From a phage, in the sequence record PZ151149.1: 64,000 bases of DNA. The stretch is one strand, 5' to 3'. Both the position numbers and the translations under genes were made by a program. How positions within the stretch are numbered: the stretch's first letter is position 1; every line of letters starts with the position of its first letter. Under the pieces are notes generated by a model. That model did not search any database and was not told the DNA's origin. It was given only the letters and a program-made list of their open reading frames with translations. Below are positions 2,467 through 47,187 of the stretch, piece by piece.

Positions 2467-2926
2467 ATTCAACCACCACAATATTGATATCTGGAGTAGC
2501 AATATTAATGATCTCTTCTACACATTCCCACTCAAGGCCACCGATACCGCAACCGATTTTAGGAATATAGAAAGGCTGTATAGCACCTTCAAAAACATCA
2601 TTGATAGTCTCAAATCCTTTCAGGATAGCACCATATTCAGCATTTGGACCCGGTCGGAATTGGGTATAGAGATTAACCCCGCACCAGTTATAACCATTAA
2701 CTTGATGCGTCCAGACACTAAACCCACCCAGCTTTTCTACCTTACCGCGAGAAGTTTGCTTGTCAATCTCTAACGCTTGTGGGAACTCTTTCGCGATCTT
2801 CGCAGCAATACCAGCGCCCATAGTATGAAAACAATTACAACCATGAATTAAATGACCGTTTCCTTGTTTAAACAGGGCGATGAGATCGCCCTTTACAGTA
2901 TCAATAATCATAATATAAACCTCCAA
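2456..2926 (-). CDS. macro-domain protein (ADP-ribose binding/processing family)
   Basis: Motifs HGCNCFHTMGAGIAAKI (cf. NAANxxLxGGGVxxAI) and IPKIGCGIGG (cf. FPAISTGIYG); GGAGG 7 nt upstream of ATG. Confidence 0.6.
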   Translation of the reverse strand: MEVYIMIIDTVKGDLIALFKQGNGHLIHGCNCFHTMGAGIAAKIAKEFPQALEIDKQTSRGKVEKLGGFSVWTHQVNGYNWCGVNLYTQFRPGPNAEYGAILKGFETINDVFEGAIQPFYIPKIGCGIGGLEWECVEEIINIATPDINIVVVEYDK

Positions 2927-3286
2927 TTAGTCACGGGAAGACAACCCAGCCATAAAACGGCTTAAAAGCGTGTCACGATAAGCAAAGCATAATTGCTTAT
3001 CAGGGGCAGTATCACACAGGTTGCGTTTTGTTTTAGCGAAACTGGCAATACTAAGATCCCATGCTCGATTTTTTCGTTTTTCATCTCGGCCTTGTTTATA
3101 GGCTTCGTCGAGTTCAAGTGCGATAAAATCGCTACACATGTTATCATCATCACAGAAGGTTTTAATGATCTTTTTGTTGATCTCAAATCCTTTGTATTCG
3201 AACTTTGGATAAGGTCGCTCATTACTAGCAAGCGCACCAGCAGAGAACATCATAGCAATCATAGCAATTATTGTCAACTTTTTCAT
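2927..3286 (-). CDS. secreted/periplasmic small protein (signal peptide)
   Basis: N-terminal MKKLTIIAMIAMMFSAGALA signal peptide, 4 Cys in mature part. Confidence 0.6.
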   Translation of the reverse strand: MKKLTIIAMIAMMFSAGALASNERPYPKFEYKGFEINKKIIKTFCDDDNMCSDFIALELDEAYKQGRDEKRKNRAWDLSIASFAKTKRNLCDTAPDKQLCFAYRDTLLSRFMAGLSSRD

Positions 3287-3293
3287 ACATTCC

Positions 3294-3884
3294 TCAATAG
3301 CGTTTAGTTTTAAGAATGCCTTTACTCTTTAGATGGTTAGCTTTTTTTAGTACGTCATCAGCATAACCTAAACCGGCTTTATAGTTCCACCCTGCATTGT
3401 AAGAAGCTAGCGCGAGTCGGATATTACCGTTTCGAACATCCAGCCAGTATGCTAACTCATCCATCGCGTAGAATGCAGAAACCTCGCGATTCATGATAAA
3501 GTTGATAGTCTGGCGATCACTCATTTTAACACCGCGCTTTGCATTTTTCGCTTTCACCGTTTTAAGGTAATTTTGAAATAATCCATAAGCATGATGATTT
3601 TTCTTTGGTGATAAGTTTGCACCCGCGCTTGATTCTTGCCATGCGATACCCGCCAAGATGTGACCTAAACCCTTTCCGTTATAGCGAATATTCGGATGGT
3701 CCTTTTTCAACTTACCGCTTTTCTCGAATTGCTCGCCGTATTGATAGGCGAAATGTAAATTATCTAGTTGGTGTGCTGTAAAGTTGTCTATCGGCGCTTT
3801 TTTGATCGGTGCGCTAGTCGATGCGTGTGTAGCACCAACGGCTAGTGACAGACTCAATACTATCGCTTTTAGAACTTTTAACAT
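3294..3884 (-). CDS. exported lytic transglycosylase (SLT-domain protein)
   Basis: Signal peptide plus SLT motifs AGIAWQESS, GLFQ, YNAGWNY. Confidence 0.75.
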   Translation of the reverse strand: MLKVLKAIVLSLSLAVGATHASTSAPIKKAPIDNFTAHQLDNLHFAYQYGEQFEKSGKLKKDHPNIRYNGKGLGHILAGIAWQESSAGANLSPKKNHHAYGLFQNYLKTVKAKNAKRGVKMSDRQTINFIMNREVSAFYAMDELAYWLDVRNGNIRLALASYNAGWNYKAGLGYADDVLKKANHLKSKGILKTKRY

Positions 3885-3969
3885 TAATTTCTCCTGTTTG
3901 GCTTAACTTTCTGATTCCATAATATAGCCCTATCACCAGAAAGTCAAGCATTAATTTAACAAATTTCCA

Positions 3970-4392
3970 TTATTGGTCTACCCTCAAAACAACAGCCGAC
4001 ATTTTACCCGCAAGTCGTTTTGGATTCTCTATAATCATTCGGCAGCATAGACCGTGATACGGTTTACCCTCTTCGATTAGATCTACTGTCATTCCGATCC
4101 ACATGTTACCGTCAGTAATTTCTAATCGATTAGGTCGGTCTTCCATTTTCAGGAAGTCGAAGATCTCCGGCAAACGAGTTTCTACCTTATTGAATAGTTC
4201 CATTGTCTTATGTTCATCGATATGACGATCGGTTAATCTGTCGATCATATGTGGACTAAAGCGAATGAAAATATACTCGCCGTAACCATCATTCAAGCAC
4301 TTTTCTTTGATCTGCGCATTGGTTTTGCGCATTTCGGTTTCGAAGAATCTGCGCAGCTTACTACGGCGAACATGTACGTTAATTGTTTCCAT
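3970..4392 (-). CDS. regB: RegB-like endoribonuclease
   Basis: Recalled similarity to T4 RegB (RRSKLRR..., RLEITDGNMWIGMTV); start at internal Met with AGGAGA RBS. Confidence 0.75.
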   Translation of the reverse strand: METINVHVRRSKLRRFFETEMRKTNAQIKEKCLNDGYGEYIFIRFSPHMIDRLTDRHIDEHKTMELFNKVETRLPEIFDFLKMEDRPNRLEITDGNMWIGMTVDLIEEGKPYHGLCCRMIIENPKRLAGKMSAVVLRVDQ

Positions 4393-4393
4393 T

Positions 4394-4732
4394 TTATTCT
4401 CCTTTCTTGAACAAATTGCGAAGCCAGTATACAAACGGGATTTCTTTAAACTTGAATTTCTCTATAGTTAATTCTTTAGTAGCAAGATGAATACCATAAG
4501 AATCATGTGTCACGATATGCCATTTTCTATAGTCCAAATGTGAACAACCATTTGAATCTAGGTTAATAATAGTTTCTCGCTCACTAGGATTGTTTTTCCA
4601 CGATTTTGTAATCGGATCGCACATAATTCGACCTAGCGTACCATGAATAATCTCGCATTTGTAAACCTTTCCGGCAGTGATATAAGCGCAACCGTCATAG
4701 TCGGTATAAACAAACACTTCTTTAACACTCAT
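4394..4732 (-). CDS. hypothetical protein, member of local 3-gene paralog family
   Basis: Shares NGCSHLDYRKW motif with next two genes; RBS AAAGGAG upstream of ATG 4732. Confidence 0.55.
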   Translation of the reverse strand: MSVKEVFVYTDYDGCAYITAGKVYKCEIIHGTLGRIMCDPITKSWKNNPSERETIINLDSNGCSHLDYRKWHIVTHDSYGIHLATKELTIEKFKFKEIPFVYWLRNLFKKGE

Positions 4733-4757
4733 TTTAATACTCCTTTGTAGTTTCGAT

Positions 4758-4798
4758 GGGGGTATATTACTACCCCCGTTTTGACGTGTCAACTACTT
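4758..4798 (-). promoter_or_regulatory. early sigma70-type promoter (TTGACA-17-TAATAT)
   Basis: -35 at 4787..4792 (rc TTGACA), -10 at 4764..4769 (rc TAATAT); -10 embedded in palindrome GGGGGTA..TACCCCC. Confidence 0.45.
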
Positions 4799-5038
4799 TT
4801 TCAAGAATTTTTTGAGTACATTCCAAAGACCTTTATTCTCGGCTTGTTTTGGTTCTTCGATCAGTGTCCATGTTCGACCGTCTAAGTGTGCACAATTTTT
4901 AAGGCAAATAAAAATCTGGTGTCCCTTATCATCACGGATATAACCACTATTCGCAAATCTTTCATGTGGTGTATATTCATACAGTGTATTCGGTGTAATA
5001 TACTTGCGGTTACTATAAGGTGTCGTTACATATTTCAT
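4793..5038 (-). CDS. hypothetical protein, paralog family
   Basis: ITPNTLYEYTP...GYIRDD...CAHLDGRTW pattern shared with 5035..5229. Confidence 0.55.
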   Translation of the reverse strand: MKYVTTPYSNRKYITPNTLYEYTPHERFANSGYIRDDKGHQIFICLKNCAHLDGRTWTLIEEPKQAENKGLWNVLKKFLKK

Positions 5039-5229
5039 GGTACTAACTCCCAACGATCACCGCGAAGATGAGAACATCCACCATCAAGAAGGATCGTAAT
5101 ACGAAACCCCGCATCATCTTCAATATACCCGATAGTCGGTGGATGTTCGTCGTCTCGTGTCGGGGTAAAATCATACATCTTTCCCGGTGTGATATCATTG
5201 CCTTTATTGCTATTGGTATAAACTTGCAT
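5035..5229 (-). CDS. hypothetical protein, paralog family
   Basis: ITPGKMYDFTP...GYIEDD...CSHLRGDRW pattern. Confidence 0.55.
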   Translation of the reverse strand: MQVYTNSNKGNDITPGKMYDFTPTRDDEHPPTIGYIEDDAGFRITILLDGGCSHLRGDRWELVP

Positions 5230-5250
5230 TTTCTTAATCTCCTACATTAA

Positions 5251-5949
5251 CTAACCACGGGTATAGTGTTCCAGAACAACGGTCAGATGAATATATTCTA
5301 ATAAATCTTTCCAAAAGTCAACATCTGGTTCTTCCGGCATACCGTTTTTCTTTGCCTCTTCACGCGCGAGTTTAACACGCTCGTAGAGATCTTTCAATTC
5401 TTCCCGCACATTATCAAAGGTTCTTTCTCCTAACTTACACGCTAAAATAGAAGAACGTCGCGCGAGAGGGAATTGTAGATCACCAGTCTGATAGATTTCA
5501 AGTAGCTGATAACCAACACGCAGAGCATGAGAAAGGTCTTTCCAGTTACTGAAATACTTTTCAGATTTGGCTACCTGCTTTTTGAGATAACCGGAGCACC
5601 CCCACATACCAACATGATAGAATTTATCGCGATGTGTTCGGATGTATTCCCATTCTCTGGAGGATTCAATCAACATGTTACTAGGCGCGTGCACCATGTC
5701 AATAGCGCCGATATCACCTTTACATGCCAGATTGATAAACCGTTTTAGACTGAACATATTAACGTCAATATCGTCTTTGGTGTTCTTGATACCTTGACCG
5801 CTAGTGCTTTGGTCATAGTGTTCTTTCATCGATCCTAAGATAATTTCTTTCGCAGTCGGAACAAAGATACCACGATAATCTTTATCGGAATTTTCAGTAT
5901 CAAGGCCGTATAAGTGAGATCCGAAGACCATTTTAACCATTGTATGCAT
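5251..5949 (-). CDS. Pol-beta-superfamily nucleotidyltransferase
   Basis: N-terminal FGSHLYGLDTENSDKDYRG (GS...DxD nucleotidyltransferase signature) followed by helical C-terminal region. Confidence 0.6.
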   Translation of the reverse strand: MHTMVKMVFGSHLYGLDTENSDKDYRGIFVPTAKEIILGSMKEHYDQSTSGQGIKNTKDDIDVNMFSLKRFINLACKGDIGAIDMVHAPSNMLIESSREWEYIRTHRDKFYHVGMWGCSGYLKKQVAKSEKYFSNWKDLSHALRVGYQLLEIYQTGDLQFPLARRSSILACKLGERTFDNVREELKDLYERVKLAREEAKKNGMPEEPDVDFWKDLLEYIHLTVVLEHYTRG

Positions 5950-5962
5950 AATTAAACCCTCA

Positions 5963-6493
5963 TTAGTATTTTACGTTACGTCGAACGCCTTTTCGAATCT
6001 GACAAATAGCAGACGGTGAAACATTATATTTTCTTGCAAGTTCTACACCCTTCATATGGGGAGAAGATAAAATCTCTTCCACTTGGTCGTCGGTAAGTTT
6101 TGCGTTTCCGTGGTTCTCTCCCCAATTGTTGTTTAATCCTTCTTCCTTCGCATGAACAAGATTTCGGGTATCTGTCGTCCATTCAAGATTATAAAGGTCA
6201 TAGTTTTGTTTGTTTCCATCCTTATGATTAACTACACGGTAGTTATTTGGATTCGGAATAAACGCAACCGCCATAGCTTTATGCATGTTCACGGTTTTTC
6301 TAAATCCATCCGGCTTATAACATACTGTAAATTTAGAATAACCAGTTTTACCATAAACACTAATATAATTTCCGGTCTCTGTATTTCTAACCCTACCATG
6401 AGAGCTAATCTCAAATTGAGTGTAGGGCAACAGCGCATCAATCACTTTCCATTCTTCGACAGGATGGTCATCACAATATCTTTTAATCATCAT
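5963..6493 (-). CDS. HNH homing endonuclease (NUMOD4-like N-term, HNH, C-terminal HTH)
   Basis: EISSHGRVRN, VNHKDGNKQNYDLYNLEW, and C-terminal helix-turn-helix LARKYNVSPSAICQIRKG. Confidence 0.8.
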   Translation of the reverse strand: MMIKRYCDDHPVEEWKVIDALLPYTQFEISSHGRVRNTETGNYISVYGKTGYSKFTVCYKPDGFRKTVNMHKAMAVAFIPNPNNYRVVNHKDGNKQNYDLYNLEWTTDTRNLVHAKEEGLNNNWGENHGNAKLTDDQVEEILSSPHMKGVELARKYNVSPSAICQIRKGVRRNVKY

Positions 6494-6509
6494 ATCACCT
6501 CATAAAAAT

Positions 6510-6540
6510 AAAGCCAACCCTTTCGGATTGGCTTAAAAAA
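6510..6540 (-). terminator. intrinsic terminator
   Basis: AGCCAACCC-TTTCGG-ATTGGCT hairpin with T-rich tail on minus strand, directly after 6541 stop. Confidence 0.5.
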
Positions 6541-6957
6541 TTACATTGCTTCCGTAAAGGTGCGCGAAATAACGTCACGTTGTTGGTCTGGAGTCAGACT
6601 ATTGAATCTTACGGCATATCCGCTAACGCGAATGGTTAGTTGCGGATACTTATCAGGATTAGCAACCGCATCAAGAAGAAGATCGCGACTCATCACATTG
6701 ATATTCGCGTGCTGACCACCTTCGACAACCGGAGCGCCATTATCTACAACAACCGGACGGAAGCTAGTTGTGTGCAGTGCCAGCGAATCGACGTCTTCGG
6801 CGGTGATCACATGTTCTTCTGCGAAAGTTTTACTAACAATTACTTTAGCGCCGATCAGTGCTTTCGGTTCGGATACCAGAATCATAGGCGCGAAGTGTCC
6901 ACCGATAATAGTACCTTTATGCTCACCTTTCATGATTTGAATTGCTTTAAATTCCAT
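6541..6957 (-). CDS. grcA: autonomous glycyl radical cofactor (GrcA/YfiD-like; T4 Y06I-type)
   Basis: C-terminus [11 protein letters not shown]...[33 protein letters not shown] is near-identical to the GrcA glycyl-radical motif. Confidence 0.85.
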
Positions 6958-7092: not shown

Positions 7093-7578
7093 TCAGTTGA
7101 TACCTAAGCCAATGAAAATAGGTTGGTCTTCTACATTACCCATCCCAACACTAAGTCGATTTACTTCTAAAAACTGCAATACGCTGTCAGTAAATCCTCG
7201 CATGGTAGTATCTAGGATAAAGATTGTTTTGTCAAGACTACGACCTCGCCAAGTGATCGGATTCAGGAAAGTTCGGATCGAAGTGCAATCTACATTTGAA
7301 ATGTTGATATTTTCACCGCGACCGCGTTCTCGGATCGTTTTGGCATGTTCCCGCGTTGTTGAAACGATAAAAACACTATATCCTTTTCGCGTATAATGGT
7401 CATATAACTTGATTGTAGCGTCTGTATGCCCTGTTTGACGGCCTAAATTGATTGAGACGATGGAATCTAGGTCATCAGCAAAATTACGTCGCTTACGGCG
7501 TTCTATGATGCCATCTACGGCAGATACACACGCAGCATAAATCAAATCTTTACTTTCTAATTTTACATCAATATTCAT
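7093..7578 (-). CDS. hypothetical protein
   Basis: 161 aa ORF, no confident motif (GRQTGHT is not a canonical P-loop). Confidence 0.55.
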   Translation of the reverse strand: MNIDVKLESKDLIYAACVSAVDGIIERRKRRNFADDLDSIVSINLGRQTGHTDATIKLYDHYTRKGYSVFIVSTTREHAKTIRERGRGENINISNVDCTSIRTFLNPITWRGRSLDKTIFILDTTMRGFTDSVLQFLEVNRLSVGMGNVEDQPIFIGLGIN

Positions 7579-7640
7579 GGTAAAGTCTCCAGTGAACGGG
7601 GAGAGATCCTTAGATTGTCTCCCCGTTGATGGTTAATATT

Positions 7641-12743: not shown

Positions 12744-12902
12744 TTATTTGCTAATCGCTAAACCTAATCCGAAGAGAGCACCCGACGCTACAGTATACCC
12801 GAAAGTTTCAAATGCAGTAAAGATATCTAAGCCACCAGCTAACAGAGTTGCAGTAAACAGAGTACCAGCTACGAACATAAAAGTTTTACCGATAAATTTC
12901 AT
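12744..12902 (-). CDS. small membrane protein (52 aa, below ORF-track cutoff)
   Basis: Manually translated MKFIGKTFMFVAGTLFTATLLAGGLDIFTAFETFGYTVASGALFGLGLAISK; AAAGGAGA RBS; downstream of promoter 12927..12967. Confidence 0.4.
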   Translation of the reverse strand: MKFIGKTFMFVAGTLFTATLLAGGLDIFTAFETFGYTVASGALFGLGLAISK

Positions 12903-12926: not shown

Positions 12927-12967
12927 TGGGGGTATCTTACTACCCCCGTTTCATGTTGTCAACTGTT
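12927..12967 (-). promoter_or_regulatory. early sigma70-type promoter (TTGACA-17-TAAGAT)
   Basis: -35 at 12957..12962; -10 weaker; same GGGGGTA..TACCCCC palindrome as at 4761..4777. Confidence 0.4.
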
Positions 12968-46524: not shown

Positions 46525-46767
46525 ATGAAACAATTTATCGAAGCAATTAAAACTCGCGATCTAACGCTGATCGAAAAAGAATTTGATAAGATCATGGAGG
46601 CTAAAAAAGCCCAGATCATCGAATCCCAGCGTGTCGAAATCGCATCCAGTATCATGATCGAAGGTGAAGAAGAAAAAGACCGCGATGATGAAGAAGATAT
46701 GGAAGATGAGGACGACGAAGACGAAGATCGCAAAGACGATAAAAAAGACAAAGAAGACGACGAATGA
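46525..46767 (+). CDS. 67: prohead core protein gp67
   Basis: 80 aa with highly acidic C-terminus (EDMEDEDDEDEDRKDD). Confidence 0.8.
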   Translation: MKQFIEAIKTRDLTLIEKEFDKIMEAKKAQIIESQRVEIASSIMIEGEEEKDRDDEEDMEDEDDEDEDRKDDKKDKEDDE

Positions 46768-46779
46768 TAGGAAGCCAAC

Positions 46780-47187
46780 ATGATTAAAGATTTTACTCCT
46801 AAAGCTGACTTAGAAACTTTTCTGCCGGAAGCACAGGAAAAATTAGACATGTTGGCTATGTTTGAGTCAGAAGAACTATTGAAAATCGTTGAAGGTATCT
46901 CCGAGGATGAGCCGGAACTGGCGGTAGCAATGCTGTCTATCATCGACGGAATTACTGTAAATGAAGCAATGGTTAAACATGTAAACGCACGCGGGGAAGT
47001 TGCACGTAAGAAAGATCGCAAAACCCGTGAGCGTAATGCTTACATGACTACTGGCCTAAGCAAAGCTAAACGCCGTCAAATTGCCCGTCGTGCTGCAAAA
47101 ACCAAACGTGCAAATCCATCTATCGAACGTCATGCGGAACGTAAGCGCAAAAAAGCAATGCGTAAACGTAAGGCGTTAGGATTATAA
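46780..47187 (+). CDS. 68: prohead core protein gp68
   Basis: 135 aa, basic C-terminus, T4 order. Confidence 0.75.
   Translation: MIKDFTPKADLETFLPEAQEKLDMLAMFESEELLKIVEGISEDEPELAVAMLSIIDGITVNEAMVKHVNARGEVARKKDRKTRERNAYMTTGLSKAKRRQIARRAAKTKRANPSIERHAERKRKKAMRKRKALGL

Follow-up and report, generated by a model that had tools for sequence, protein, structure and literature searches.

Ancient tandem paralogues with a predicted SH3-like fold in a variable-copy array between nrdC.11 and regB of RB49-like phages

Hyperplastic regions of RB49-type phages contain PeSL elements, early promoter/stem-loop units that were described as recombination/regulatory cassettes (Arbiol et al. 2010, PMC2839356). 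In the published cassettes of RB49 and phi1, PeSLs stand on both sides of a mobile ORFan (PMC2839356; Comeau et al. 2014, PMC4122927). The present analysis concerns three small genes, named A, B and C below, which lie on the minus strand at positions 4394–5229 of a 64,000-nucleotide (nt) stretch of phage DNA (sequence record PZ151149.1; this whole stretch is called the window). Attention was drawn to them by a sequence-only reading, in which three consecutive open reading frames (ORFs) with shared motifs were taken as products of local tandem duplication and divergence, typical of rapidly evolving host-interaction or anti-defence genes. It was found that A, B and C are ancient tandem paralogues with a predicted SH3-like fold and that the interval where they are located, between the genes nrdC.11 and regB, is, judged from the compared sequences, a variable-copy array of this protein family in a clade of T4-like phages. 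A search of the two papers cited above found no mention of ORF095-097, the RB49 counterparts of these genes, or of their paralogy. A search for literature on A, B and C, their locus tags, PHROG identifiers or paralogy found none.

The genes, their conserved flanking anchors and the promoter element between B and C are the following:

5251–5949, minus strand: nrdC.11, RlaP-family nucleotidyltransferase (Pfam RlaP, 4.7e-14); conserved upstream anchor of the array, by synteny
5035–5229, minus strand: gene A, 64 amino acids (aa); stand-alone predicted SH3-like domain, no C-terminal tail; isoelectric point (pI) 4.6, acidic
4793–5038, minus strand: gene B, 81 aa; predicted SH3-like domain, then a basic, putatively amphipathic C-terminal tail GLWNVLKKFLKK
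4758–4792, minus strand: PeSL-type cassette between B and C; sigma-70 promoter overlapping a stem-loop
4394–4732, minus strand: gene C, 112 aa; predicted SH3-like core (residues 1–75) and two predicted C-terminal helices
3970–4392, minus strand: regB, endoribonuclease (Pfam REGB_T4, 2.3e-48); conserved downstream anchor of the array, by synteny

The window region 3900–5300 showed 95–96 % identity to Krischvirus genomes (Ec_Makalu_001, GEC-3S, RB49, Phi1 and others) and was covered whole and unbroken by 59 of the 59 matching phage records; by this comparison, the source phage is an RB49-like (Krischvirus) coliphage. Genes A, B and C correspond to RB49p097, RB49p096 and RB49p095, which are annotated as hypothetical proteins in RB49 and GEC-3S, and they lie on the strand that carries the T4-type early genes. 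A and B follow directly behind nrdC.11, with a gap of 21 nt upstream of A, and the ATG of gene B overlaps the stop of gene A as ATGA, which implies translational coupling. The start of gene C was placed at the ATG at 4732. A 132-aa version, which begins at a TTG at 4792 in the ORF listing, is disfavoured because its start would fall inside the promoter. The stop of gene C is located 1 nt ahead of the regB ATG. Each of the three genes has a GGAG Shine–Dalgarno sequence (that of gene A at 5239–5242), and these sequences, together with the A-rich tracts that trail them, resemble RegB sites.

To evaluate the homology of the three genes, Smith–Waterman local scores were compared pairwise with those of 2000 shuffles. 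The A–B pair scored 96 against 22 ± 3.9 (z = 18.8) and the A–C pair scored 51 against 23 ± 4.0 (z = 7.0), with none of the 2000 shuffles as high in either case; the score of the B–C pair was 43 against 25.5 ± 4.7 (z = 3.7; 9 of 2000 as high). Among the 587 six-frame ORFs of the window, the best non-self matches of each gene were the other two, and no fourth copy was found in this set with a three-sequence profile or a broad family profile. In the PHROG database, full-length matches were obtained for A (6.3e-29) and C (1.9e-35) to phrog_6261 and for B (2e-56) to phrog_15978, both of which hold phage proteins of unknown function, and cross-matches between the two profiles (1e-5 and 2.9e-7) provided an independent link among the three genes. 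PHROG thus splits one homologous family in two, and it gives no function, fold or array description. The shuffle tests, the reciprocal best matches in the window and the PHROG cross-matches together confirm, on the sequence level, that A, B and C are true homologous tandem paralogues. Therefore, the three minus-strand ORFs singled out by the sequence-only reading are real, with gene models refined as above, and their similarity lies above the shuffled background.

An exhaustive search of 1.84 billion representative proteins with a profile returned 102 clusters (50 % identity) at E ≤ 1e-3. Most of the clusters are stand-alone proteins of 58–70 aa, and a few have two or three tandem copies of the domain in one polypeptide. 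The family consensus is MKVKTDYxGCxYITAGKxYE...GyIxDDxGdxixIlLxxCAHLdGxxWEVVE. Conservation was measured across 93 family members in the numbering of gene A. In the ITPGKxY motif, K17 is kept in 92 % and Y19 in 100 % of the members; in the GYIxDDxG motif the values are 86 % for D39 and 84 % for G41, and in the CxHL...W motif they are 89 % for C52, 83 % for H54 and 100 % for W60. Further conserved positions are T5, T14 and I36 (89 % each) and G16 (84 %), and residues 22–35 are hypervariable both in sequence and in length. Cys10 is present together with Cys52 and His54 in many of the members. The motifs noticed in the three ORFs at the outset thus proved to be the signature of the whole family.

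The sampled clusters are single-member metagenomic proteins. Cultured carriers include krischviruses, Vibrio myophages of ~136 kb and some Drexlerviridae, so that members were found in other phages, as had been proposed for verification, as well as in metagenomic relatives. The family is rare, and its occurrence was limited here to phage records, phage-like contigs and metagenome contigs; a pattern scan of representative bacterial genomes, made with a single N-terminal pattern of low sensitivity, revealed no relatives. Scans of A, B, C and the family members against Pfam, NCBIfam and PADLOC gave no match for this domain, and when PDB sequences were searched with the family profile, only noise was returned. 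The longer family members contain no fused domain that Pfam recognises, and no Rfam match was obtained.

Modeling of gene A using AlphaFold2 with the family alignment as input led to a confident model of an SH3-like barrel, with a predicted local distance difference test (pLDDT) score of 95.3. In the model of gene C, the core (residues 1–75) is of high confidence, and the helices at residues 76–88 and 99–110 have pLDDT values of 58–76. The predicted topology comprises five strands, with a long loop after strand 1 and a variable loop after strand 2; further along are a tight hairpin at DDxG and, ahead of the final strand, a 3-10 helix at CxHL. The model thus includes the five-stranded barrel, the RT-like and n-Src-like loops, the distal hairpin and the 3-10 helix of SH3-like domains, and it is near-certain from this modeling that the fold of the family is an SH3-like small beta-barrel.

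Two small barrel proteins of other phages were compared with the family. The stand-alone SH3 protein of T1-like phages (DUF7244) was proposed to be an SH3b-type cell-wall-binding/lysis accessory (PMC13164509). DUF7244 (PF23896; Drexlerviridae, T1 ST14) is likewise a stand-alone phage protein of ~60 aa for which an SH3-like barrel is predicted and no function is known; however, its gene adjoins the lysis cassette, whereas the present family is found in early accessory regions. As a relative it was rejected. The DUF7244 hidden Markov model (HMM) matched none of A, B and C (E ≤ 1) and none of the 93 members (E ≤ 0.01), while its positive control, T1 ST14, was recovered at 8.8e-29; in the reverse direction, the family HMM missed T1 ST14 at E ≤ 10, and hhalign gave a probability of 1 % (E 0.057). 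Gp54 of phage Bas11 (PDB 9AXB) is a small beta-barrel, of a rare six-stranded type, that triggers the defence protein CapRel(SJ46) (PMC11578894). Its identity to the family is 2–6 %, and the family profile missed the PDB entry at E ≤ 10; the resemblance is one of fold class only.

Several observations were made on individual family members. Escherichia phage vB_EcoS_W011D (Drexlerviridae; locus L030, 3977–4923) has two adjoining members of 70 aa and 245 aa, the larger of which has the domain at its N-terminus; the pair is located in a small-gene region upstream of the terminase genes and represents a second tandem arrangement, independent of the one described here, in a phage family that is unrelated. 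In T1 (L031), the family HMM gave weak matches to ST68 (3619–3993, E 6e-4), ST7 (46621–47037, 0.0055) and ST58 (7387–7590, 0.03), which are possibly distant SH3-like relatives and are different from ST14, the DUF7244 protein. An unannotated extension at the C-terminus, with the motif TPKTWGEMTDAEKGALLLA...YRIKPEP, is common to the longer members P0035, P0049, P0088, P0106 and P0114, and P0046, P0073 and P0047 have Cys-rich, zinc-ribbon-like extensions; neither type of extension has a Pfam match. In P0005 (111 aa), the first 28 residues are near-identical to gene C and are followed by an MraZ/AbrB-like domain (PF02381). This protein is encoded by one contig of 2956 bp from ENA and was set aside, as it is probably a metagenome assembly chimera.

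A comparison of the nrdC.11–regB interval across relatives revealed three genes in 59/59 cultured krischviruses, in gut-metagenome krischviruses (loci L003 and L016-18) and in a more distant phage (L027-29). The metagenomic relative L015 has two genes, one of which is an A::B hybrid that follows A as far as the shared IGYIKDD motif and B thereafter, as expected from unequal recombination. The B alleles are also mosaic, and their switch point is the same GYIxDD motif. In an uncultured T4-like phage (L033; ena:ERZ27260015:k141_230232, 2665–4360), the interval from nrdC.11 to regB contains five genes, each of which belongs to the family, with six domains in total; one encodes a fused two-domain protein and one a protein with a Lys/Glu-rich extension, and promoter/stem-loops are located in the intergenic gaps. 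This phage has no close cultured relative, and its regB region is ~70 % identical to that of the krischviruses. The syntenic position in T4 is occupied by the helical genes vs.3–vs.5. These three and the neighbouring small T4 genes were considered as possible counterparts and were found not to be members of the family. The alignments showed that the array changes by recombination, namely by swapping of the gene C core, formation of the A::B hybrid, fusion into two-domain genes and expansion. Thus, the supposed divergence is borne out in the form of variable copy number (two genes at the least, five genes with six domains at the most) and of hybrid, fused and swapped alleles.

In gene C, three features could be delimited:

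4460–4678, minus strand: swappable gene C core cassette, defined by the blastn break, sliding identity and allele sequences
4394–4459, minus strand: hyper-conserved 3' end of gene C, coding for the tail EKFKFKEIPFVYWLRNLFKKGE; the translation-initiation region of regB lies within it
4392–4402, minus strand: regB Shine–Dalgarno sequence GGAGAATAAAA, overlapping the last codons and the stop of gene C

The DNA identity of the gene C core is ~35 % (positions 4690–4451) with respect to relatives whose flanks are 80–92 % identical, and it jumps back to 97–100 % over positions 4450–4391 in the comparison with L003 and L016. Two types of C alleles were found, of 112 aa and of 98–103 aa, with a common gene start and the same 22-residue tail KFKFKEIPFVYWLRNLFKKGE. 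This tail is unchanged between proteins that are otherwise 41 % identical, and in the most distant phage it is conservatively substituted (KFSFKELPFIHWL), which points to selection on the tail at the protein level. The regB Shine–Dalgarno sequence GGAGAATAAAA agrees exactly with the consensus of T4 RegB/S1 cleavage sites, GGAGAAUAAAA / GGAGRAYARAA (PMC1702504), and this match fits the autocontrol of regB, which is conserved (PMC3014915). RB49 is reported to have GGAU at this Shine–Dalgarno position, where GGAG is found here; the GGAG version has one extra codon (Glu) in gene C, giving 112 instead of 111 aa, and UPWr_E1 also has the 112-aa form. Inspection of the tail region by eye revealed no convincing sigma-70 or MotA-box promoter for regB.

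The element between B and C consists of a promoter, with TTGACA at 4787–4792, a 17-nt spacer and TAATAT at 4764–4769, and of the stem-loop GGGGGTA/TACCCCC at 4758–4777. It was kept upstream of C in every relative examined, including the distant ones; at this position, GEC-3S has an annotated promoter and G37-3 an annotated terminator. A second, near-identical element is located at 12928–12947 on the minus strand (GGGGGTAGTAAGATACCCCC with TTGACA and an AT-rich upstream element), where none would be expected by chance. The two lie ~8.2 kb apart and are potential partners for PeSL–PeSL recombination. The second element precedes an ORF for a very hydrophobic 52-aa protein (12744–12902, minus strand). 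An intergenic sigma-70 promoter, an AT-rich upstream sequence, a G/C stem-loop, repetition in the genome and a position ahead of an ORFan are thus all present. The promoter, AT-rich element and polyG/polyC stem-loop are the same as in the RB49/phi1 cassettes of PeSL and ORFan (PMC2839356; PMC4122927). In contrast to the published arrangement, only one PeSL adjoins the swapped segment here, and the other homology arm is the conserved coding tail of C; no second flanking PeSL was found in the 1-nt gap that separates C from regB or in the 21-nt gap ahead of A. By these sequence features, the triplet sits in a hyperplastic region with an early promoter/stem-loop ahead of gene C.

The age of the triplet was judged from its synonymous sites, which are saturated between the paralogues (proportion of synonymous differences, pS, 0.68–0.73). 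No repeat between A, B and C remains at the DNA level, and both facts indicate that the duplication is ancient. The assumption of a local, recent duplication does not hold, considering also that the triplet is fixed in the 59 cultured krischviruses and present in distant relatives. Because of the saturation, the ratio of nonsynonymous to synonymous substitution rates (dN/dS) among the three paralogues is uninformative, and it was computed over 10–11 orthologous loci instead. The values were 0.29 for A, 0.19–0.21 for B and 0.19 for C, compared with 0.13–0.14 for vs.1, 0.05–0.065 for regB and 0.025–0.028 for nrdC.11. Hence, A, B and C were shown to be real genes under purifying but relaxed selection, with a constraint 1.4 to 10 times weaker than that of their neighbours. 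Amino acid identity to L003, L016 and the distant phage was, respectively, 91 %, 75 % and 61 % for gene A, 80 %, 54 % and 47 % for gene B, 46 %, 43 % and 35 % for gene C, and 97 %, 89 % and 88 % for RegB. The suggestion of rapid evolution therefore stands in part: the genes evolve faster than their flanks, as seen from both dN/dS (0.19–0.29 against 0.025–0.14) and the gradient of identity, but with no dN/dS above 1.

With regard to function, the reading that we tentatively prefer, at somewhat less than an even chance, is that these ancient SH3-like paralogues are early cytoplasmic protein-binding accessory factors of host takeover or counter-defence. The structural and evolutionary parts of this reading are near-certain, and its functional part is a guess. 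The three proteins would be early cytoplasmic products that act as protein-binding modules, and the conserved barrel would display hypervariable loops, with the n-Src-like loop (residues 22–35) setting target specificity. The basic, putatively amphipathic C-terminal helices of B and C might dock to the membrane in the manner of MinD and FtsA, or to a partner protein. The role would be a non-essential one, in which copies and alleles diversified by recombination may cover different targets. An early-type sigma-70 promoter/stem-loop, the PeSL, stands in front of C. No signal peptide or transmembrane segment was found in A, B or C (maximum 19-residue Kyte–Doolittle window 0.45–0.69); the same measure gave 1.73 for the signal peptide of Vs.1. 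Stand-alone family members are acidic (median pI 4.6, median net charge -5, 76 % below pI 5.5), and the ends of B and C are basic, aromatic-rich predicted helices, that of C being the low-confidence helix at residues 99–110. The tail of B has a hydrophobic moment of 0.66–0.74 and a charge of +4, with the best 11-residue window (0.74) at the C-terminus; the best 11-residue window of the C tail, also at the C-terminus, has a moment of 0.65 and a charge of +3. MinD and FtsA carry C-terminal amphipathic membrane-targeting sequences. Their tails are likewise located at the extreme C-terminus, are basic and have a hydrophobic moment comparable to that of the B and C tails, a likeness in composition and position only and not significant against shuffles.

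A number of points weigh against this functional interpretation. The amphipathicity of the tails does not differ significantly from that of shuffled sequences (p = 0.08 for B and 0.35 for C), and dN/dS exceeded 1 in none of the genes over the 10–11 loci. No functional clue came from Pfam, NCBIfam, PADLOC, PDB sequences or the literature searched. Fixation of the triplet in 59/59 cultured krischviruses fits a housekeeping-like accessory role equally well as an arms race. In addition, the hybrid and the expanded arrays both come from metagenome assemblies, so assembly artefacts are possible in these two cases.

Gene C might, alternatively, work with RegB: its C-terminal helices would dock on this RelE/YoeB-like RNase as an anti-RegB or regulatory partner that inhibits, times or retargets it, while the swappable barrel would have a separate role; in a bolder form of this reading, the SH3-like head and the paralogues A and B would provide variable target recognition. 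In every tail-bearing lineage (L003, L015, L016-18 and L027), regB directly follows C after 1–12 nt, and its Shine–Dalgarno sequence falls within the last codons of C, as for a small coupled upstream gene. At 35–46 % identity of the C core, the tail is still unchanged or differs by conservative substitutions, in parallel with the 88–97 % identity of RegB. Also in support of such a role, RegB has structural similarity to RelE and YoeB, and the possibility of an unknown anti-RegB partner was raised in a review (PMC3014915). However, T4 regB has the unrelated helical vs.3 upstream, at a distance of 59 nt, and works without such a partner; in L033, the gene beside regB has no tail, and a promoter/stem-loop lies in between. 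A partner is therefore not conserved wherever regB occurs, given that T4 vs.3–vs.5 are unrelated and the tail is missing in L033. Moreover, regB initiation and the RegB site explain part of the conservation of the tail DNA, and similar basic tails occur in B and in other members that do not adjoin regB. On balance, a partnership with RegB is unlikely, both in its general form and with docking of the helices on the RNase. We consider it just as doubtful that the proteins are nucleic-acid-binding small barrels of the Sm, KOW, Tudor or chromo-like kind, with a regulatory part in early transactions of RNA or DNA. B and C have basic tails, and the neighbours on either side, an RNA-repair-type nucleotidyltransferase and an RNase, both act on RNA; but the stand-alone members are mostly acidic, with the median charge and pI given above, and no match to RNA-binding Pfam families was obtained. 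In T4, nrdC.11 and regB are separated by several kb that contain other genes, so that their adjacency is lineage-specific.

Less probable than these is that the genes are ORFans without a selected function, near-neutral passengers carried along by PeSL-mediated shuffling. Relaxed constraint relative to the flanks, variable copy number with cassette replacement and the location in a hyperplastic region (PMC2839356) would agree with it. However, dN/dS is far below 1, the triplet has been retained in each of the 59 cultured genomes and over deep divergence, and the core residues do not vary among members from phage groups that are unrelated, which makes this explanation quite improbable. An even smaller chance is left to SH3b-type cell-wall-binding/lysis accessory proteins, as proposed for DUF7244 (PMC13164509). 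A DUF7244 protein appeared at rank 22 in a BFVD search, and a peptidoglycan hydrolase gene and an SLT-domain gene are located within ~3 kb; but the proteins have neither a signal peptide nor a transmembrane segment, they stand alone and are unfused to a lysin, their genes lie outside the lysis cassette with early-type signals, and the DUF7244 HMM, the reverse family HMM and hhalign were all negative. Finally, the idea that the similarity arose by chance, or that the ORFs are not genes, has only the small size of the ORFs in its favour; it is refuted by the PHROG matches, shuffle tests, window search, family clusters, AlphaFold model and dN/dS, and its probability is negligible.

Several other genes near the array were noted. 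An ORF for a 176-aa HNH_3/NUMOD4 homing-endonuclease-like protein (5963–6493, minus strand) lies between vs.6 and nrdC.11. It is missing at that position in RB49, GEC-3S, Phi1, ECD7 and others, which have a terminator-containing gap of ~87 nt there, and a comparable HNH gene was found in G37-3, L003, L017 and L029. Vs.6 (6541–6957, minus strand) is a GrcA/YfiD-like autonomous glycyl-radical cofactor (Pfam Gly_radical, 4.9e-15; motif RVSGYAVRF), and downstream of it a terminator-like hairpin (6511–6534) and a promoter-like site (6489–6517) were found. On the other side of regB, Vs.1 (3294–3884, minus strand) has at its N-terminus a segment that resembles a signal peptide, and it also contains an SLT lytic-transglycosylase domain (6.5e-6). 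The N-terminus of Vs (2927–3286, minus strand), annotated as a valyl-tRNA synthetase modifier, is also hydrophobic and signal-like.

The general phenomenon, turnover of an ORFan family in a T4-type hyperplastic region beside a PeSL, is known; the new details are the family and its fold assignment, the variable regB-anchored array and the modular gene C. A coherent protein family without a Pfam model is now defined, with a confident predicted fold, as is a recombining variable-copy array at the fixed landmark nrdC.11–regB in T4-like phages, which include therapeutic candidates. Phage counter-defence and host-takeover factors are often found in such arrays, and this one provides a short, well-delimited list of genes for functional tests. 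With its swappable head and an invariant tail fused to the regB initiation site, gene C makes the question of a RegB protein partner testable in krischviruses. If a partnership with RegB were true, the nrdC.11–regB array would be a modular, recombining set of adaptors for a phage mRNA-inactivation system; if the functional tests gave nothing, the finding would be one of ordinary ORFan gene-family turnover in a T4-type hyperplastic region.

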